Positions 1 to 13,448 of a DNA stretch of 38,726 nucleotides are shown here, piece after piece. The stretch is from Candidatus Parcubacteria bacterium. GTDB taxonomy: Bacteria; Patescibacteriota; Microgenomatia; Levybacterales; UBA12049. The notes under the pieces are model-generated. The model had not been told where the DNA came from. It made no database searches and worked only from the letters and a program-made list of their open reading frames with translations. Each line of letters opens with the position of its first letter. Positions within the stretch are counted from its first letter, which is position 1. The position numbers and the translations under genes were made by a program. The stretch spans positions 1-38,726 of the forward strand of contig JBDKFM010000003.1 of assembly GCA_039798685.1 (NCBI GenBank). Direction: 5' to 3'.

Positions 1-611
1 GTGTGGCAGGTTCAGATATTGATAATCAGGTTGCAATACCTATTACCGCGGCGAGAACACTGACTGAAGCAGATCAGGTAAATTCGATCATAGTCAAAAC
101 TGCATCGCCTCAGGTGTTGGGGCAGGCGAAGAAAAAAATCGAGACGATTCTTTTGAGAAGTCTCTCTGAGGATGATTTTTCAATTCTCAGTCAGGAGCAG
201 CTACTTAACTCTATCTTGCAGATCCTGAGTGTGTTGACTGTCATGCTTGGCGGGATTGCTGCTATTTCTTTGGTTGTCGGTGGGGTCGGGATCTCAAACA
301 TCATGCTAGTATCGGTCACAGAAAGAACTAAAGAGATCGGTCTTCGCAAAGCAGTCGGTGCCCGACCTCGTGATATTTTGCTGCAGTTTCTTTTTGAGGC
401 GGTAATCCTCTCGGTTCTGGGAGGGCTTATCGGTGTCGCGTTGGGGTATCTTGGGTCACTTGCGATCTCTGCGTATCTGAAAACAGCGGTGCCTCTTTGG
501 GCAGTGTTGTTGGGTGTCGGATTTTCCTCGCTTGTCGGTATCGTCTTCGGCGTTGCCCCGGCAATTCGCGCGTCCCGTCTCCAGCCGATTGAGGATTTAA
601 GACATGAATAA
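1..611 (+). CDS. ABC transporter permease, MacB/FtsX family (5'-truncated by window)
   Basis: IAAISLVVGGVGISNIMLVSVTERTKEIGLRKAVGA...ILLQFLFEA and C-terminal PAIRASRLQPIEDLRHE are MacB-family FtsX-domain signatures. Confidence 0.95.
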   Translation, partial: VAGSDIDNQVAIPITAARTLTEADQVNSIIVKTASPQVLGQAKKKIETILLRSLSEDDFSILSQEQLLNSILQILSVLTVMLGGIAAISLVVGGVGISNIMLVSVTERTKEIGLRKAVGARPRDILLQFLFEAVILSVLGGLIGVALGYLGSLAISAYLKTAVPLWAVLLGVGFSSLVGIVFGVAPAIRASRLQPIEDLRHE

Positions 612-722
612 ATGCCTTAAAGTCGAAACCCTGCACCGCAGGTGCATAGGTCGAGGCATTGAGGCATGAATGAGAGTCTCATTATCGAGACCTACTCGGT
701 TGAGGCACTACGGTATGAGTAA
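588..722 (+). repeat. Tandem degenerate copies of the permease 3' end
   Basis: 588-611 att gag gat tta aga cat gaa taa (IEDLRHE*); 650-673 gtc gag gca ttg agg cat gaa tga (VEALRHE*); 699-722 gtt gag gca cta cgg tat gag taa (VEALRYE*). Confidence 0.85.
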
Positions 723-723
723 G

Positions 724-1770
724 TTAGATGAGTGATGCATCAACTCTAGGTACAGGTGATGTTTTTGTCATCATAATTGTGTAGTTGCTTATTTTAGATT
801 CTATTTGATCGGGGTGTGTGGAGATCATTTCAAGAAGAGTCTCTCTTTTATGATCTGAAATGATTCTAGCCTTCTTTAATTCAAGAAATGTTTGTAGACA
901 CGCAATCCCCACAATTATTTCAGCGGTACTCGTAAAATCTTCGGATATTTTGAGGATCTCTGCTTGTGCATCAAAACCTAATATTTTTGTGTATCTTGTT
1001 GCAAGTGTAGAATACAATTGATGTGCTTCTGCGATTGTGGTTATATCCTGAGTTGTAATCCCTGCTGCAAATAACCTTTCGAGCATATCGATTGCTCCTA
1101 TTTTGTGATGCGATGGTGATCTTCTCGTATATGCACTTTGATCATGATGAAGTTTTGTGTGAAAAGGGGCAGCGATAAACATACCTCCCTCTGTTAAAGA
1201 ATCAATGACTTCTCTTATTGTTTTTTGAAAAAGGAACGGATGAAAATAGGGTAGAGAAAAAGTCGCCAGTGTGAGATTTACATCGGTAATTGAGTGATCT
1301 CTTAAAAATTGTGCGTATGATTGTTCACGGGTAAGACTGTAGGAAATATTTTCAAAAGTCACCTGCGGATTGTTGTCGTTTGAATAGTCTCTATCGTGCG
1401 TATTAAACTCATCAGATGTGAGTGCATCGGTGAGGCCAATTAGGTGTATCTGTATATCAGGATGGGTTTGCAGGAAATCAGACGTTTTGGGTACTTGTGT
1501 TTTGGTTTTGGGTGTACCATTCTGAATGTTTTCAAGTTCCTGAATAAAATGTTGGAAGATACCCCCTGATCCGCTACCGAGATCAACAATGGTAATTGCG
1601 CTTTGTTCACGTAGTAAGGCATTATCTAGTTGTCGTACAACAAGGTCATCGAAGGTTCCTACACGAAATGCATTTTCTATATTCCAAAGTTCCTGACATT
1701 CTTTAATTCCTCTTGCAAAATGTGAAGAATCTTTTGATCCTGAATAGACTTCGGTTTGTGGTGTTCCCAT
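724..1770 (-). CDS. Class I SAM-dependent methyltransferase-like protein, paralog 1
   Basis: Motif I VDLGSGSG and post-motif LTEGGMF. Start moved from 1788 to ATG 1770 (MGTPQ) because TTGAAT-17-TATACT ends 8 nt upstream. Confidence 0.7.
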   Translation of the reverse strand: MGTPQTEVYSGSKDSSHFARGIKECQELWNIENAFRVGTFDDLVVRQLDNALLREQSAITIVDLGSGSGGIFQHFIQELENIQNGTPKTKTQVPKTSDFLQTHPDIQIHLIGLTDALTSDEFNTHDRDYSNDNNPQVTFENISYSLTREQSYAQFLRDHSITDVNLTLATFSLPYFHPFLFQKTIREVIDSLTEGGMFIAAPFHTKLHHDQSAYTRRSPSHHKIGAIDMLERLFAAGITTQDITTIAEAHQLYSTLATRYTKILGFDAQAEILKISEDFTSTAEIIVGIACLQTFLELKKARIISDHKRETLLEMISTHPDQIESKISNYTIMMTKTSPVPRVDASLI

Positions 1771-1808
1771 AAGGGGAGAGTATATCATTTACCTATAGTA
1801 TATTCAAT
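1745..1808. repeat. 64-bp exact direct repeat, copy 1 (promoter + first ~8 codons)
   Basis: tagacttcggtttgtggtgttcccataaggggagagtatatcatttacctatagtatattcaat is identical to 2934-2997. Confidence 0.97.
1779..1807 (-). promoter_or_regulatory. Sigma70 promoter TTGAAT-N17-TATACT with extended TG
   Basis: Minus strand ttgaat atactataggtaaatga tatact ctcccctt ATG; identical copy at 2968-2996. Confidence 0.8.
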
Positions 1809-1832
1809 GCGTGTTGAAGTTTTTTGAAGTGT

Positions 1833-1871
1833 ATCAATACATACCAGGTTGCTGCACTATGGCATGAATAG
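1833..1871 (+). repeat. Fourth, more degenerate copy of the permease 3' end
   Basis: 1848-1871 gtt gct gca cta tgg cat gaa tag (VAALWHE*); 1833-1871 matches 684-722 at 28/39 nt without gaps (hand count). Confidence 0.75.
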
Positions 1872-1882
1872 GCTTCGTCTGT

Positions 1883-2959
1883 TTATGCACCAGATTCAAA
1901 TATTGTTGTCGGTGCTACGTGTGAAGTGGTTCGTCGTTGTATAAAAAATAATTCTTCTCCGATATGGCTTACGATACGATCTCTATATTTCTCTGCGAGT
2001 TCGTGAAGTGTTGCCTTTTTATGGTCTTTGAGAACACGGGCTTTTTGATCTTTTAGATCATCTTCAAGATTTCGGCTTTCATTATGTACTCCGAGTGCCG
2101 GAGTTGGATGTTGTTGTAGCTTGTTTACATACTCCTCAGGTGAAATGTGTGTGACTCGTCCTAATCGGGAAGCAATCTGAATGAATCGCGTCGTCACTTC
2201 AGGGAGTGTGCGACTAAATTCTTCGTGTGTTTGAGATAATTTTGCATTTTCGAGTGTATTCATAAGTCTTTTAAGTGGACCATGAGATTGAGCGTCATTT
2301 TTTCTTGGAGTATAGGCGCTGAGTGGATAGAGGACTTCATGACCATACGGAGCACCGACAAAGACACCTCCTTCGCCAAGTGATGTGATTGCTGTTTCGA
2401 CAGTATCTCTGAAAAGAAACGGGTGAAAATAGGGGAGTGAAAAAACAGCAACGGTGAGATGTGTTTCATCGATGCCGTTTTCACGGAGAAACTCTGCATA
2501 TGTTTGGTCTTTTGTCAGACTGAAGTAGACATTTTCTGCGGTCACTTGAGGATGTCTTGTCCACGAATCACTGAGGTTTGTGCGTGTATTAAATTGAAAT
2601 GGTGCTTTTGCATCAGTAAGCCCGATCATGCGTAGATGCATTTCAGGATGTGTCTGTAGATATCGTGTCGCCTCAGGTGCGAGTTGCAATTCCTCAGGCA
2701 GATCTGTTTGTCCGGAGTATCGGAGATTGGCAAGAAAACTGGTCATTAAGCCACCTGACCCACTTCCGATATCGACGAGTGTGACGTTTCCTCTTCCTTG
2801 TGCTTCAGCGTGAAGAAATTGTTGGAGGAGGAGTGTGTCGAATTTGCCGACACCTAGTGTTGCTTCTTTGTTCCAGAATTTTTCATACCCTGTGATATTT
2901 CTGTTGTGATATTGCGTGAGCACCGTTCCTCTGTAGACTTCGGTTTGTGGTGTTCCCAT
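1883..2959 (-). CDS. Class I SAM-dependent methyltransferase-like protein, paralog 2
   Basis: VDIGSGSG; shares IGLTDA, PQVTxEN, FSLPYFHPFLF and EGG blocks with paralog 1. Start moved to ATG 2959. Confidence 0.7.
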   Translation of the reverse strand: MGTPQTEVYRGTVLTQYHNRNITGYEKFWNKEATLGVGKFDTLLLQQFLHAEAQGRGNVTLVDIGSGSGGLMTSFLANLRYSGQTDLPEELQLAPEATRYLQTHPEMHLRMIGLTDAKAPFQFNTRTNLSDSWTRHPQVTAENVYFSLTKDQTYAEFLRENGIDETHLTVAVFSLPYFHPFLFRDTVETAITSLGEGGVFVGAPYGHEVLYPLSAYTPRKNDAQSHGPLKRLMNTLENAKLSQTHEEFSRTLPEVTTRFIQIASRLGRVTHISPEEYVNKLQQHPTPALGVHNESRNLEDDLKDQKARVLKDHKKATLHELAEKYRDRIVSHIGEELFFIQRRTTSHVAPTTIFESGA

Positions 2960-2997
2960 AAGGGGAGAGTATATCATTTACCTATAGTATATTCAAT
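2934..2997. repeat. 64-bp exact direct repeat, copy 2
   Basis: Identical to 1745-1808 (offset 1189). Confidence 0.97.
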
Positions 2998-3034
2998 AAT
3001 TTGTGAGTCTGCGAAGATATATTAGTCCTATAAG

Positions 3035-3063
3035 TTGAAAAATCGCTTGTAATCTTCTATACT
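3035..3063 (+). promoter_or_regulatory. Sigma70 promoter TTGAAA-N17-TATACT
   Basis: Ends 8 nt before ATG 3072; no SD. Confidence 0.75.
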
Positions 3064-3071
3064 CGCGAGTC

Positions 3072-4232
3072 ATGGGTAGTGTAGAACTTAGAACGCGGGA
3101 AAGAGCAGAACCAGCAGTCAAGAAATTGTTTGTTCCTGACGGATTTGCAGGACTTGGGGATGATTCTGTGACGTATCGTAAAGTGTTTAGTGAGCGTGAG
3201 GCCTTTGAGATACGAAAGATGTTTGAGAGTACAGGGTGTGTAGTCCTGGCTGGTGAGAGTGACTATCAGGATGGTTCTTTTGGAATTTTATCTGATCCTC
3301 CGTATCCTGCGTCACATGAGCTTCGCAGAAATCTCGCAGATGCCATAGGCTTACGGGAACCTCGTCTGTTTCCGGTTACTGAAGCTGAGAAGCATTTACC
3401 AGCGGTCGCTAAATATCCGAAATTACATAAGGGAAATGGGATTTTTCTCATCGAAAATCGTGTGCAACTGGCAAGGTTGAAGGCAAAAATGCTTATCGAA
3501 CATACAACGATGACACGATTATTTCCTGTCGGTACACCGAACTTCGTTATGGCGCGCCAAGTGCTTTCACATGTGCTCTCTGACACAATTCATCCCGATG
3601 CGGAAGAGTCGCTCAGAAGAGTTGCGATGAACTATCCTCTTGAGGAATATATTGAGACTCCGGGAGATTTTGATGCGTCTTTTAGAATAGTTGCAGACGG
3701 TCACGGTGAGCTGCATTACGGTGCATTGATTCGTTCACCTATGAGAAAAGGTCATGCGAGAAGAGTAAAGACAAGAGATATAGATCCTCGTAATAAATGG
3801 AACAGGCTTCTTGAAGATCCTTTCAGTCCGCTTTTTCTGAAGTCTAAAAAAATTGTCTCAAATGAGGCGCAAGGGGGATTGCTTATCATGTTAAATGGAG
3901 AAAGTGTCACGGATATTGAAAGTGCTTCTGTTCTTCTCGCTCATGGATTGAATCCTGAGTGTCCGAGGGTTCCTGTGAGGATGCTTGAGGCAGCTTCCAG
4001 AATCGGTGTGTTGTCGAGAGCGATGTTTCCCTATGTCGGCGTAGATTTTATTATGGATAAAAACGATATGAAGACCCCTGTACTCCTTGAGGTAAATGCC
4101 TATCCGGTCATTTATCCGACAGAGATTGGTATTGCGGATAAGATTCCTGAATCGCATTCACTCGACGTCAAGGTTGTTGAGTGTATGATGGAGATGATGC
4201 AGAGGGTGGCGAATTTCAAGCCGGTATTTTAG
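3072..4232 (+). CDS. ATP-grasp fold protein (RimK-like, divergent)
   Basis: PAVAKY..HKGNGIFLI, LEEYIE, FRIV, VSNEAQGG, YVGVDFI, LLEVNAYP in the canonical ATP-grasp order. Confidence 0.75.
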   Translation: MGSVELRTRERAEPAVKKLFVPDGFAGLGDDSVTYRKVFSEREAFEIRKMFESTGCVVLAGESDYQDGSFGILSDPPYPASHELRRNLADAIGLREPRLFPVTEAEKHLPAVAKYPKLHKGNGIFLIENRVQLARLKAKMLIEHTTMTRLFPVGTPNFVMARQVLSHVLSDTIHPDAEESLRRVAMNYPLEEYIETPGDFDASFRIVADGHGELHYGALIRSPMRKGHARRVKTRDIDPRNKWNRLLEDPFSPLFLKSKKIVSNEAQGGLLIMLNGESVTDIESASVLLAHGLNPECPRVPVRMLEAASRIGVLSRAMFPYVGVDFIMDKNDMKTPVLLEVNAYPVIYPTEIGIADKIPESHSLDVKVVECMMEMMQRVANFKPVF

Positions 4233-4308: not shown

Positions 4309-5160
4309 ATGAAACGATTCTGCCTATCGATTCTCCTTCTTCTCCTCGTTCTCTTTGTACCGACGACTGTTTCTGCTGCAGCTCCTGATGGAGCTGGTCC
4401 ATGGGCTGATTCAGTTGTTTCTTCCTCTCAGGGACTTCGTAAAGACGGTAGTGCTGTGTTACCTGCGAGGTCAAATCCTACAAGCGCACTAGGGGTTGCG
4501 GAAAACGACACACTCGATGGCAGTTTTTTCTCACTTGGGTTTGGCGGCAGTATCGTTTTGGGATTTGACAACGGTATCTCAGGCGGTACGCTCGTCGTTG
4601 AAGCGACAAATCCAGGGTACCCAAATGAGACCGCGCAGGTTGAGGTATCTCCTGACGGAAGTGTCTGGACAGTTGCCGGTTCTGTGACAACTGATGGGGA
4701 GGTAGCACTTCCTCAGAGTGTGAGTTGTGCCAAATTTGTCCGACTCACCGATACGAGTAACCATGTAAATTTTGCTGATGCGACAGCTGATGCGTATGAT
4801 GTCGATGGAGTGCGTTCTACTGGTGAGTCATGTACTGTCGTGACACCGACTCCGACTGTCACACCGACTCCGGTCTGTGGTTCAGGATCACAATGTTGTG
4901 ATGTCACTGTGTCACAATCCAATACGACAACTGCTGTCACAGTGATTGGTGCGAGTGCAAATACAGGAGGCAATAAAGCTAATAAAAATACGGGAGGTAC
5001 AGTCAGTATCACGACCAAGAAAGCGAAAACCACAGTGAATGTGACGACGACCGGAGGGCATAATGTCGCCAATGTGACGGGATGCTGCGGCAGTACATCG
5101 ACCAAAAATGTCATCAAAAATAACGGTGCCGGTTCAAAAAACACCATCAAAATCCACTAA
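4309..5160 (+). CDS. Secreted/cell-surface protein with PT linker and Asn/Thr/Gly-rich C-terminus
   Basis: Signal peptide ending VSA; globular domain (FFSLGFGGSIVLGFDN, DVDGV); TPTPTVTPTP linker; ANTGGNKANKNTGG tail. Confidence 0.75.
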   Translation: MKRFCLSILLLLLVLFVPTTVSAAAPDGAGPWADSVVSSSQGLRKDGSAVLPARSNPTSALGVAENDTLDGSFFSLGFGGSIVLGFDNGISGGTLVVEATNPGYPNETAQVEVSPDGSVWTVAGSVTTDGEVALPQSVSCAKFVRLTDTSNHVNFADATADAYDVDGVRSTGESCTVVTPTPTVTPTPVCGSGSQCCDVTVSQSNTTTAVTVIGASANTGGNKANKNTGGTVSITTKKAKTTVNVTTTGGHNVANVTGCCGSTSTKNVIKNNGAGSKNTIKIH

Positions 5161-5198: not shown

Positions 5199-5930
5199 TT
5201 ATTGTAGAAATTGGGGTCTTGCCTCCATCGGCACTGAGGCATCGAAGACAAATGGAGCTCTATAGTAGCTGCTCTGAGGATCAGTTGAAAAATGCAATCC
5301 ATCGATATCACGCGCAGTGCTACGCGTTTCAAGTGTGTGCTTCGTGCCGATCATCATCATGAGACTAGGAGTATCCTGTCTGTCGTTTAATCTCCCTCGG
5401 AGTGCAACTCCTACCATGCTTCCGGGTTGTCTTTGGGGGATTATCAATGGGCGGTCAAATGACCATCCTGGGTCCTGTTGCAAACGTCTGGCTTGCTCTG
5501 CGATACCTATCATATCGTTGACACCTGCAGCATAGTTCGTGGTGAGGACAAACTGATAGAGCTCCTTCAGTCTGTCCTGAGTGTTTTGTGTTTCTTCCAC
5601 AGATTCTCCTGCATTAAACACGATATGGTATCGATCGAGCTCAAATGTCTGGCTATTTTTATCAAATTTTCCGTTACGTATCAGTTCAAGAGTGACTGTG
5701 TCATCCGGAAATATCGTCTTCATTTCGTCAGCAAATGCTGAGATTTCCGGAGTGAGTTCGGGCGGTGGAAGCTCAGCATGGAGACGAGTGTATTCGATCA
5801 GAAATTTCTCAGCTGCTTTTTCGTCTTCGATCGACCTCCAGCGAAGACCTCCCATTATTCCAGCTCCAACTCCAACTGCTGCTCCAGCCTTGAGGATATC
5901 ACGCCTGCTTATTCCTTCTGTCCTGCTCAT
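5199..5930 (-). CDS. Hypothetical protein with twin-arginine-like N-terminal motif
   Basis: ISRRDILK followed by a hydrophobic stretch; promoter TTGTAT-17-TATAAT 9 nt upstream. Confidence 0.7.
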   Translation of the reverse strand: MSRTEGISRRDILKAGAAVGVGAGIMGGLRWRSIEDEKAAEKFLIEYTRLHAELPPPELTPEISAFADEMKTIFPDDTVTLELIRNGKFDKNSQTFELDRYHIVFNAGESVEETQNTQDRLKELYQFVLTTNYAAGVNDMIGIAEQARRLQQDPGWSFDRPLIIPQRQPGSMVGVALRGRLNDRQDTPSLMMMIGTKHTLETRSTARDIDGLHFSTDPQSSYYRAPFVFDASVPMEARPQFLQ

Positions 5931-11298: not shown

Positions 11299-12315
11299 TC
11301 ATTTACTATGAAATATACCTCTCACAGAGATTGGGTTTCGTTTGATAAAACTGACACGCGGGTATCGTCGTTGGGAGACAATCTCGCTCGCAATGGCTGA
11401 GTTCCATGCCCATTGTTTTTGAATCGGTGAACCATTTCCTGAGAGATTCCCTTGCGCGAGACATCCTACAGTTGGTGAGACAGTTGGTAAGGAATCAATA
11501 AGCATTCTCGCATTTCGTCTGTAGTGCTCAACTAGTCCCTGTCCATATTTTGAGAAGTCAAGCTTACGATCGTCTCCTTCACCTACAAGTTGAAAATTCT
11601 CTATTTCAAATGGTGTAAATGGCAACCTGGGAAATTCTTTGAGCATTTCTATAACAGGAATAGATACGTCGGCATGATCGCTAGCGAGTTTGCTTACAAC
11701 CGGAAATGAGTTCTTCGCAGTTATCGCGTAGTCATCCGGTGACAGTTCTGTTCCGAGTTTTGCTGCTACGTCGAGTAGTCCTGACATCACATCACAATTT
11801 GTCGTAATACCTTCTCGCATCAGGAATCTAAAGCCAGGTTCTCTTCGTTTTTCAGGATTTATCTCATGCAGGAACCATGTGAGCATATCGAGTCGTCTGT
11901 ACGCTGAGGAAAGATTCGGATCACCCATGCCAACTTCGAACGCACGTGCTTCATTTTCCATGGTTTCTTCAAGCGTTGATCGCATAAGCCTGCCCATGAC
12001 TTGAAACGCATCGTCGAAACTCGGATAAATTCTGCTCGATTGATACGTAACAGGATATGCGGATTCATCAAGAGGCGCTACCAAACCCCATTCACCACGT
12101 CTATGTGCGTAAGCCTCATCTATAATTCTGTCGGCGAATAGAAGACCGAGTGCAAAGAGTTCCGGCTTGAGTGTATTTGTGAGCGCGATCGCTTCTTTAC
12201 TGTCAGGCTTAATTTTTCCAAACGGAAGAACCGGGTGTTCATATTGAGAAGGGTTGTATCCGTTGTCTCGAAAATGTCTTGCTTGTTTCACTATTCCCGT
12301 CACTCTTTCGCCCAT
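11299..12315 (-). CDS. Hypothetical protein
   Basis: 338-aa ORF with own promoter TTGTAA-17-TATAAT; no recognised motif. Confidence 0.75.
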   Translation of the reverse strand: MGERVTGIVKQARHFRDNGYNPSQYEHPVLPFGKIKPDSKEAIALTNTLKPELFALGLLFADRIIDEAYAHRRGEWGLVAPLDESAYPVTYQSSRIYPSFDDAFQVMGRLMRSTLEETMENEARAFEVGMGDPNLSSAYRRLDMLTWFLHEINPEKRREPGFRFLMREGITTNCDVMSGLLDVAAKLGTELSPDDYAITAKNSFPVVSKLASDHADVSIPVIEMLKEFPRLPFTPFEIENFQLVGEGDDRKLDFSKYGQGLVEHYRRNARMLIDSLPTVSPTVGCLAQGNLSGNGSPIQKQWAWNSAIASEIVSQRRYPRVSFIKRNPISVRGIFHSK

Positions 12316-12431: not shown

Positions 12432-13448
12432 CTATGAAGAAGCAGGAAAAATCTGAGTCATTGCCTGCGCGAGCATCTCCGGATTGTGTCTAACAACGTG
12501 CAATCCGTCTCTACTCGTTACTAAGTTCGTTGCCTGATGCTGGATAATTTGTATTCCTTCATCTGCTGCTCTATACAGATCACTGTCCTCCCACCCTAAG
12601 AAAAATGAGTGATCCTTTGCATATGCTTCGGCGACTGTTGGGTATCGAGATTCAAACTCTTGTCGTGTCATTTCCGGTATGATTAGTCCGTCGATTCGTC
12701 TGCCTGAATATTCTTCTACTTTTTCCACAAAGTCGAGCGGGGTATACTCATGATTTTCATTTCTGGTACTCGTAAGGTTGGTTACCATGTACACTTCAGC
12801 CTTTGATTTCGCAAGCGCTTCTTTCATACCAACAGGTAAAAAGTTTGAGAGCACTGAGCCATGCATGCTCCCACATGCTAAAACGATACGTGATGCATTT
12901 TCAACTGTTTTTGCTGTTTTTGGGAAGACGGGGACACTTGGTTCCAGATCCATCTTTACCACCATTGCCGCTGAGAGTCTCTGGTAGTCGAGGTTGTGTT
13001 CTCCCGAAAACTGTCTGCCTAAGTCATCCTGGAAGACGATGTGTGCGGGTACTGTTGAAGAGGGAAGGACTCTTCCCAAAAGCGGAATGCCAAATGTCTG
13101 AGCATCGTGCTCTATTTGAGCAAAGCCTCGTTCCTGATCAAAAAACCTATCCATAATTTCCTGTCCGAGGACTTCGTCTCTTTCGTTTCTATTGCTGATC
13201 CATCTGATAAATGTCGCGACGGCGGGATTGTCACTATCCGGTTTGATGAGTGAACGAAGAATTTTTAACCCGTCTGCATAGGCAACCTCATTGCCACGTG
13301 CGTTTAGACGCCTTCGTCCTGTAGCTCCTCCTGAATCAAACATTGCTGCGACAGCGTCGATATGATCGACCTGACCGGTTCGTAGCAGTGCCTCATTTAT
13401 GACCGGTGAGCCTGTGCCTCCACCGATTGTGACTATTTCTCTTGGCAT
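12432..13448 (-). CDS. YvcK/CofD-family protein (divergent)
   Basis: IVTIGGGTG, FDSGGATGR, GEHNLD, VYMVTNL, VRHNPEMLA. Confidence 0.85.
   Translation of the reverse strand: MPREIVTIGGGTGSPVINEALLRTGQVDHIDAVAAMFDSGGATGRRRLNARGNEVAYADGLKILRSLIKPDSDNPAVATFIRWISNRNERDEVLGQEIMDRFFDQERGFAQIEHDAQTFGIPLLGRVLPSSTVPAHIVFQDDLGRQFSGEHNLDYQRLSAAMVVKMDLEPSVPVFPKTAKTVENASRIVLACGSMHGSVLSNFLPVGMKEALAKSKAEVYMVTNLTSTRNENHEYTPLDFVEKVEEYSGRRIDGLIIPEMTRQEFESRYPTVAEAYAKDHSFFLGWEDSDLYRAADEGIQIIQHQATNLVTSRDGLHVVRHNPEMLAQAMTQIFPASS

Follow-up and report, generated by a model that had tools for sequence, protein, structure and literature searches.

Elements that integrate at the 3' ends of genes or of tRNA genes duplicate their attachment (att) site and form tandem arrays, the staphylococcal cassette chromosome (SCC) elements at rlmH being an example. 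Integron gene cassettes carry attC hairpins with RYYYAAC/GTTRRRY core sites, and repetitive extragenic palindromic (REP) sequences and miniature inverted-repeat transposable elements (MITEs) are other elements of a miniature, palindromic kind. Homology-facilitated illegitimate recombination after DNA uptake was reportedly described by de Vries and Wackernagel in 2002. The locus considered here lies at the start of a contig of a Candidatus Parcubacteria bacterium (JBDKFM010000003.1, designated C3, positions 1-38726), where the last codons and the stop of a permease gene recur downstream as displaced copies. The whole stretch of 38,726 nucleotides (nt) that was analysed is referred to as the window; the genome is 1.18 Mb (1,183,993 nt) in 78 contigs and is 90% complete.

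In fungal mitochondria, mobile endonuclease ORFs (mORFs) with a foreign C-terminal were found in atp6 of Allomyces and in atp6, atp9, cox2 and nad3 of Glomus (PMC3630166). The inserts lie in the 3' end of a conserved gene, supply their own replacement C-terminal and leave the native C-terminal downstream; the two C-terminal copies are 64-81% identical in DNA and identical or nearly so in protein, and the inserts are sporadic among close relatives (PMC3630166). Double-hairpin elements are also known from Allomyces mitochondrial DNA (Paquin et al. 2000, as cited in PMC3787672).

The first three termini of the permease locus are interpreted here as a stack produced by serial, additive replacement of the 3' end of the gene by a module of about 50-60 nt that has no open reading frame (ORF) and consists of a terminus followed by hairpins, a reading given an even chance of being correct. 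An initial annotation, made from the letters of the window, had instead proposed that single-gene cassettes were captured repeatedly at this gene end, each bringing its own terminus. The replacement part of that proposal survived, in that the copies behave as displaced ends and the newer ends are recoded for the same peptide. The cassette part was not supported: the first three copies are parted by hairpin-forming spacers of 38 and 25 nt with no cargo, and the spacer type is homologous across genomes.

Four termini and two hairpins at the permease gene end

The window opens inside a gene for an FtsX/MacB-type ATP-binding cassette (ABC) permease, and only the 3' part of the gene is present (202 codons, positions 3-611, plus strand; Pfam FtsX, PF02687, E 1.3e-20). 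Its best relatives are 52-59% identical. The live terminus, copy 1 (588-611, plus strand), was located in the sequence by a pattern scan and encodes I-E-D-L-R-H-E-stop. Three displaced termini follow on the same strand: copy 2 (650-673), V-E-A-L-R-H-E-stop, with an upstream frame that is open for only 7 codons; copy 3 (699-722), V-E-A-L-R-Y-E-stop; and copy 4 (1848-1871), V-A-A-L-W-H-E-stop, which has 3 mismatches to the search pattern. The starts of the first three copies are 62 nt (1 to 2) and 49 nt (2 to 3) apart with no gene in between, and the copy most distant from the permease gene is the most decayed. The permeases of relatives end in P-I-(E/D/Q)-A-L-R-Y-E-stop, with Tyr in 79 of 81 single-terminus loci, so the family consensus given in the initial annotation was correct, as was its remark that copy 3 is closer to it than the live end; of the four termini, copy 3 is the closest.

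The positions of the four termini agree with those first reported, and the matches are not a product of chance. Searched at up to 3 mismatches, the degenerate pattern RTYGARGCNYTNMGNYAYGARTRR had exactly 4 sites in the window, while dinucleotide shuffles gave 0.26 ± 0.56 sites and reached at least 4 in 0 of 100 cases. When all 78 contigs (1,183,993 nt) were scanned in six frames under relaxed peptide criteria, the same 4 termini and no others were returned, and a repeat search of the stretch recovered all four copies as one repeat family.

Two hairpins were recognised in the first module. P1 (589-620, plus strand) joins the first bases of the live terminus to those directly 3' of the stop, and the stop (609-611) is at the 3' foot of the loop. 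P2 (622-657, plus strand) belongs to spacer 1; it opens with GTCGAAAC, the local version of a conserved GCCGAAAT motif, and its 3' strand reaches into copy 2. The RNA fold of 588-660 has a free energy of -19.6 kcal/mol (z -2.47) and both P1 and P2 form. A covariance model of the module, R1, gave 588-658 as its top match in the whole genome (E 0.006, 21.7 bits), with one weak match besides this locus and nothing else. Spacer 2 (674-698, plus strand), which is similar to the spacer of another carrier genome (G136), has a small inverted repeat, CGAG (686-689)/CTCG (695-698), and its fold was no better than that of shuffled sequences (z -0.39).

The same arrangement recurs across modules. GGCNN at the start of the live terminus (terminus A, Glu and Ala codons) pairs with NNGCC right after the stop, and the last codons and the stop therefore sit in the P1 loop. 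P2 is an AUCCU...AGGAU helix with a conserved cap, CCUGAGCUUGUCGAAGG. On 12 other modules, 93.3% of the P1 and P2 cells were paired compared to 79.6 ± 2.2 in shuffled alignments (0 of 500 reached it), the covariation score was 0.344 as against 0.104, and compensatory changes occurred at 5 of the 10 pairs. Controls with slid partners were only 19-50% paired. The module of one carrier (G441) has a P1 of 10 bp and a P2 of 7 bp.

Among 89 loci of the closest permease genes of the same order, sampled by protein, a recurrent unit was found in 8. In order, it comprises the live terminus (A), a spacer (B) of roughly 26 nt with the consensus nGCCGARATCCTGAGYTTGYCGAAGG, and a second terminus (C). The bases tcg aaa and tcg aga before copies 2 and 3, which the initial annotation had taken for decayed S-R-L codons, belong instead to a motif of the spacer, GYCGARAY..., which other genomes conserve downstream of the live stop. 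A strict two-copy pattern was present in 5 of 245 genomes of the order, with none in a reversed control, and two further carriers were added; terminus C was broken by deletions in 3 of the 10 carriers from other genomes of the order. A looser pattern matched 8 of 401 genomes in a sample of the class (control 0), namely the genome of the window, six clear cases, all from other families, and one probable chance match. The spacer pattern alone, run over 185,579 species genomes, returned 21 stretches, of which 6 had a permease gene before and a second terminus after the spacer. These permease-linked stretches came from Gottesmanbacteria, Curtissbacteria, Berkelbacteria, a record named 'Patescibacteria group' and one labelled Gammaproteobacteria, which matches the locus of another genome (G135) along the displayed stretch. 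A metagenome scan with the permease found no close relative (best 57%); a live terminus was identified at 54 of its 80 loci, and one of these, L216, was a further case.

Across carriers the spacers are 20-70 nt long with no ORF inside. Stacks of at least three termini occurred in two genomes, G313, with three in series, and Berkelbacteria, where the order is A1-B''-A2-B-A3-B''-A4 and A4 is decayed. On a permease tree of 91 rows the 11 carriers require 11 changes (shuffled mean 10.5); they are not clustered and appear as scattered singletons, and the genera g2, g82 and g15, of which several species were sampled, have one carrier apiece. There must therefore have been many gains or very many losses. 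The displaced remnants that the initial annotation proposed to seek in related genomes thus recur sporadically with a conserved spacer; gene-cassette cargo was not shown in them. In another genome (G047; locus L093), part of a permease, frameshifted and about 190 codons long, lies at 1545-2101, 1.4 kb downstream of the live permease; it ends IDALRYE-stop and follows a gene with a MutY-like start (by eye).

Differences between the copies were mostly silent. Between copies 2 and 3 there are 5 synonymous changed codons (the stop-to-stop change included) and 1 non-synonymous one, in line with the mostly synonymous differences first noted. In 17 neighbouring pairs from 15 carriers, 77 changed codons were synonymous and 11 non-synonymous, a sample found partly by peptide motif and to that extent biased toward a synonymous result; the differences by codon position were 26/12/72, and random point changes would be about 21% synonymous. 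Carriers found by the spacer alone showed the same excess. It follows that either the copies differed from the outset, having come from separate working genes, or both have been maintained as coding sequence.

In L216, a metagenome contig of 69% GC, a GC-rich hairpin and then a second terminus come after the end of a MacB-type permease (1880-2070), and the insert lies between perfect 21-nt direct repeats. All 5 of the 5 variable terminal codons in the insert are synonymous and rare in the gene (TTG 2/45, CGA 3/29, TAT 2/8), while the remnant terminus uses codons that are common there, so codon usage favours the downstream copy as the native one. The unit of inheritance was indicated by the Berkelbacteria stack, in which A1+B'' and A3+B'' are identical at 49 of 50 positions and the termini following each B'' are unrelated. 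Since P1 also joins each terminus to the next spacer, the unit is a terminus together with the hairpins that follow it. The best fit to these data is that this unit was placed before the older terminus, at the Ile/Val codon.

The cap motif also occurs outside permease genes. A 17-nt motif, CCTGAGCTTGTCGAAGG, tips hairpins, some of them terminator-like, in records of Bacteroidota, Acidobacteriota, Chloroflexota, Gammaproteobacteria, Nitrospira and Patescibacteria (L112-L141). The spacer pattern was found within a T-box leader in Dehalococcoidales and 72 nt past an RNase P RNA gene. In an Acidobacteriota record (L130, about 3400-3580), a two-hairpin element with the cap motif lies between a full tRNA and a 25-nt copy of its 3' end (1 mismatch), and this tRNA was the only place with flanking direct repeats among the non-permease copies of the motif. 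In a Gottesmanbacteria record (L142, G620:C40:38300-46300), about 135 nt comprising the last 36 nt of groEL, the capped hairpin and a terminator are repeated with 92-95% identity at 2010-2134 and 5673-5805, 3.67 kb apart, and enclose ORFs of 311, 444 (AMP-binding-like motif, by eye) and 410 amino acids, none of them a recombinase. A text search of the literature for the 17-nt string found no paper, and the literature searches made returned no description of the capped hairpin CCUGAGCUUGUCGAAGG.

Proposed serial replacement of the gene end and competing explanations

In the proposed mechanism, each event would set one module directly before the terminus that was live at the time, at the Ile/Val codon seven codons ahead of the stop. 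The first part of the module would be a working, differently coded version of the last 7 codons and the stop, and the second part the spacer, with P1 formed between the new terminus and the bases past its stop, and with the capped hairpin P2. The older terminus would remain downstream, untranslated and decaying. Because the units have no ORF or cargo and their presence in Patescibacteria MacB/FtsX-type permease genes is recurrent and patchy, the module is read as a miniature non-autonomous insertion or as the footprint of targeted recombination. It would spread because it brings its own replacement gene end. High turnover of modules would explain why most displaced copies are intact.

The same locus was compared in related strains, represented by Logan contigs from four runs of four other studies that are 97-99% identical over the region. 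The live end is IEALRHE in three of these contigs (X3, X4 and X9) as a result of 595 A>C, both differences in copy 2 (658 and 664) are synonymous, and 602 A>G would remove a mismatch in the predicted P1. The 150 nt from 573 to 722 carry 9 of the 21 differences found in one 1,016-nt strain contig. No contig joint fell at copies 1-3 in the 4 runs. In two genomes of the same genus, neither the permease (at E <= 1e-10) nor the 386-amino acid gene downstream was found, and the permease of the window has a long branch (0.72) in the permease tree; this permease may itself have been acquired.

A number of observations count against serial replacement by a mobile module. Nothing that could account for mobility, be it an enzyme, a terminal inverted repeat or a target duplication, was detected, nor was a Y1 transposase. 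In line with the remark in the initial annotation that the window has no integrase, the part of the window that was studied contains no recombinase, nor is there one near the locus. The search that it suggested elsewhere in the genome returned three tyrosine and two serine recombinase genes on other contigs (PF00589 on C42, C27 and C7; PF00239 on C38 and C8). The cargo turnover that it expected among related strains was not seen: in all four other runs the organisation is identical to that of the window, with no module gained or lost. A phylum sample of 150 genomes yielded no full module with model R1, giving instead cap hairpins alone in 4 non-permease places and plain termini. The nearest non-carriers, only 60-80% identical, matched A and C about equally and did not single out either copy as the newcomer. 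At third positions, live copies taken from different carriers resemble one another no more than ordinary termini do (3.07 and 2.86 of 7, respectively), and so give no evidence that the inserted termini recently shared an origin; the exception is codon 2, within P1, which is GAG in 13 of 15 live copies compared to 14 of 53. Among carriers found by the spacer, 13 of 16 displaced copies are intact, too well kept for neutral DNA if the modules are old. Finally, the occurrence of the cap motif outside permease genes in other phyla means that its conservation may reflect function rather than recent spread.

A stronger form of the proposal can be offered only tentatively. Mobile elements of about 50 nt with a double hairpin and no ORF would home into the DNA for the last seven residues of MacB/FtsX-type permeases, would be tolerated through their recoded codons and stop, and would re-target their own 5' end and so build stacks. 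Their movement would be effected in trans by a nuclease or recombinase, or would proceed via an intermediate of RNA or single-stranded DNA for which the P1-P2 fold is required. If true, no smaller gene-end-replacing elements would be known, and the modules would be a bacterial equivalent of the mORF inserts of mitochondria. If the module is mobile or recurrently acquired in any way, it would represent a minimal route by which a gene end is overwritten with the gene unharmed, and would make such events easy to recognise in the genomes of Patescibacteria, which are small and difficult to study. For annotation, short peptide echoes of a C-terminus past the stop can be replacement fossils and not necessarily chance or cargo capture. 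The conserved capped hairpin CCUGAGCUUGUCGAAGG is present in several phyla and has no matching Rfam family.

The chief rival to serial replacement is a selected device, in which the terminus, P1, P2 and the second terminus together form a conserved cis-acting RNA (or single-stranded DNA) element at the 3' end of the permease message, arisen by local duplication and kept by selection, the second terminus included. The stop codon could, for instance, be held in a hairpin, or termination could be coupled to the downstream gene. Such a device would explain the covariation of both P1 and P2 and the well-kept second copies, which vary like coding sequence, with all four Ala codons and switches between Leu and between Arg codon families. 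The single-sequence folds of three modules were better than those of shuffled sequences (z -2.5 to -2.9), and CCUGAGCUUGUCGAAGG also caps hairpins elsewhere, among them terminator-like hairpins of a Chitinophagaceae genome, which has 8 copies at <=3 mismatches. The scattered distribution is left unexplained, in that 11 changes for 11 carriers would require very many losses from a single origin, and the deletions that break the second copy in 3 of 10 carriers of the order also count against it. No route for translation of the second copy was found, since its frame meets one TGA in ATTGAGGC and another in CCTGAG. A longer P2, in which the spacer would also pair with the beginning of the second copy, had no support from covariation, pair 28-58 being unpaired in 8 of 12 sequences. 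RNAalifold gave no consensus structure on an earlier, poorer alignment, Rfam 15 gave nothing relevant at E <= 1 for 10 carrier loci, and in 9 loci with the cap motif the matches at E <= 0.1 were only to the flanking T-box, RNase P and tRNA. On balance a selected device was considered improbable.

Less probable still is the cassette model of the initial annotation, framed here as integrase-driven elements or single-gene cassettes, each with a replacement terminus, that integrated into the 3' end of the permease gene at an att site, the short units being scars left after loss of cargo. The perfect 21-nt repeat around the L216 insert does resemble an att core, the groEL-end repeat in Gottesmanbacteria encloses three genes, one gene sits between copies 3 and 4 of the window, and recombinase genes are present elsewhere in the genome. 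Among the strain contigs, joints at a 64-nt repeat omit 1,189 nt in one contig and step back 1,189 nt in another, one run each. These joints were not counted as evidence because the repeat is longer than the word used by the assembler and they are possibly assembly artefacts. Neither the studied part of the window nor the cargo of the groEL case has a recombinase, nothing lies between copies 1, 2 and 3, and the organisation was unchanged in the 4 other runs. Nor did the copies share the att-like core that such integration suggests, the longest identical run between neighbouring copies being 6-7 nt in the window and 3-12 nt elsewhere, and independent internal deletions would not yield one conserved spacer across many genomes. 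For the gene between copies 3 and 4 alone, an origin of this type is possible.

It is very unlikely that the spare termini are the last remains of deleted tandem permease paralogues. Many genomes do have two permease paralogues, and the partial permease in L093 differs at its terminus from the live end only synonymously, but all the short remnants share one starting codon (Ile/Val) and their spacers are homologous between genomes, which is not expected from random deletions. Duplication of the gene end by slippage with neutral decay afterwards, and a merely accidental resemblance, both named in the initial annotation as possible refutations, can be dismissed almost entirely: the copies are close together, but the substitutions are strongly synonymous, the spacers are not repeats of each other, and none of 100 shuffled sequences gave four sites.

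Several other candidates were tried and rejected. A hammerhead-like reading (UGA-helix-GAA-A:U helix-H) lacked CUGA and stem I and had no Rfam match. Translation of the second copy by frameshifting met two conserved TGA codons in frame, and ribosome hopping over 50 nt, of which T4 gene 60 is an example, would yield the same protein. A clustered regularly interspaced short palindromic repeat (CRISPR)-like reading of repeats and spacers was discarded since the 'spacer' is identical in kind across many genomes.

The convergent genes and the 1,189-nt repeat

Two ORFs on the minus strand converge on the termini, 724-1788 and 1883-2977, and their stops lie 1 and 11 nt from the ends of copies 3 and 4, respectively, as the initial annotation had it. 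The likely start of gene 1 (724-1770, minus strand; GC about 0.39) is ATG 1770-1768 (MGTPQTEVY...), and a public record (member P0004) gives the protein as 348 amino acids, the length counted from this ATG. Gene 2 (1883-2959, minus strand; GC 0.41-0.45) probably starts at ATG 2959-2957 and is present in public records in a form of 358 amino acids. The two proteins are 37% identical, and outside the 64-nt repeat their DNA is about half identical.

Both had been called methyltransferases, a designation that holds at the level of the fold. Pfam gave nothing above threshold, and sequence matches to the PDB were below threshold as well. The AlphaFold2 model had a predicted local distance difference test (pLDDT) score of 86.3, and the top Foldseek matches were all class I S-adenosylmethionine (SAM) methyltransferases (E from 6e-6, template modelling (TM) scores only 0.2-0.3), which justifies the label 'methyltransferase-like'. 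A D-x-G-S-G motif was invariant in 41 sequences. The predicted structure places the two genes among class I SAM-dependent methyltransferases (Rossmann-like fold, GxGxG motif) at the fold level only. The family is small, with 135 cluster representatives at E <= 1e-3 among 1.84 billion. A search of a collection of genome contigs found no relative of the methyltransferase-like gene, and 60 relatives had one distant match, which is not adjacent to a permease.

An exact 64-nt repeat, confirmed by the repeat search, blastn (64/64) and a promoter scan, occurs at 1745-1808 and 2934-2997 on the minus strand. The first copy (71 nt at 96%) consists of a promoter-like TTGAAT-17-TATACT, 8 nt, the ATG and the first 9 codons, and the second likewise has the promoter and first codons. 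Three promoter-like sites in all (TTGAAT/TTGAAA-17-TATACT; 1779-1807, 2968-2996 and 3035-3063) each end 8 nt before an ATG, which suggests from sequence that leaderless or near-leaderless messages are used in this organism.

When 612-1810 was aligned with 1811-3010, the segment 1811-1871 (plus strand), with copy 4 inside, aligned as a decayed repeat of 650-722; thus, copy 4 is part of a segmental repeat of 1,189 nt made up of the decayed terminus region, a methyltransferase-like gene and the 64-nt promoter and 5' end. This repeat arose either by additive insertion of gene 1 or by tandem duplication with later homogenisation of the 5' ends. The gene between copies 3 and 4 is the sole possible cargo at the locus, and could be such, with segmental duplication fitting equally well.

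Further along the window, an 8-nt insertion, TCTTGAAT, follows position 4240 in contigs of two of the runs, between the 386-amino acid gene (3072-4232) and an ORF at 4309. The neighbouring minus-strand ORFs at 11299-12315 and 12432-13448 have exactly 338 codons each and are possible tandem paralogues.

Comparison with described systems

The differences between copies are of all kinds at third codon positions and not adenine-specific as in diversity-generating retroelements, which also have a reverse transcriptase nearby, a gene for which no search was made. The likeness to integrons consists of a hairpin site 3' of each unit and of units arranged in series. However, no integron integrase is adjacent and there is no attI, units 1-3 have no gene, and the spacer does not fit RYYYAAC/GTTRRRY (by eye).

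The double-hairpin elements of Allomyces, REP sequences and MITEs resemble the module in that they measure tens of nt, have two hairpins (Allomyces), are patchy and apparently mobile, and lie at gene ends. They differ in being multi-copy and in lacking the last codons of a host gene, whereas the module is found at one locus per genome and in one gene family; blastn gave no other genomic copy of the region, and the cap motif is multi-copy only in other genomes.

Integrative elements at gene ends likewise leave a displaced gene end downstream and form stacks by repeated events, and the element in L130, with its 25-nt repeat (1 mismatch), likewise borders on a tRNA. The module locus, in contrast, has no recombinase, identical core or element body, an identical core being present only in L216 (21 nt). 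Homology-facilitated illegitimate recombination would add foreign DNA beside a homologous anchor, the resident segment can stay, and no enzyme encoded by the element is needed; variable junctions are expected from it, whereas here the boundary codon is the same in all short cases and the spacer is conserved.

The mORF inserts are similar in more than position. The window copies are likewise divergent in DNA and the same in protein, as are the 17 neighbouring pairs and the L216 insert, the replacement end would, on the proposed reading, be upstream, and the occurrence is sporadic. There is no ORF between the copies here and no homing endonuclease, the gene between copies 3 and 4 being methyltransferase-like. 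The insert is 50-60 nt, replaces only 7 codons, has two covarying hairpins, lies in a bacterial chromosome and forms stacks three or four deep. By analogy, therefore, the module, in which the defining endonuclease ORF is absent, is not a member of the mORF system yet appears to work as that system does.

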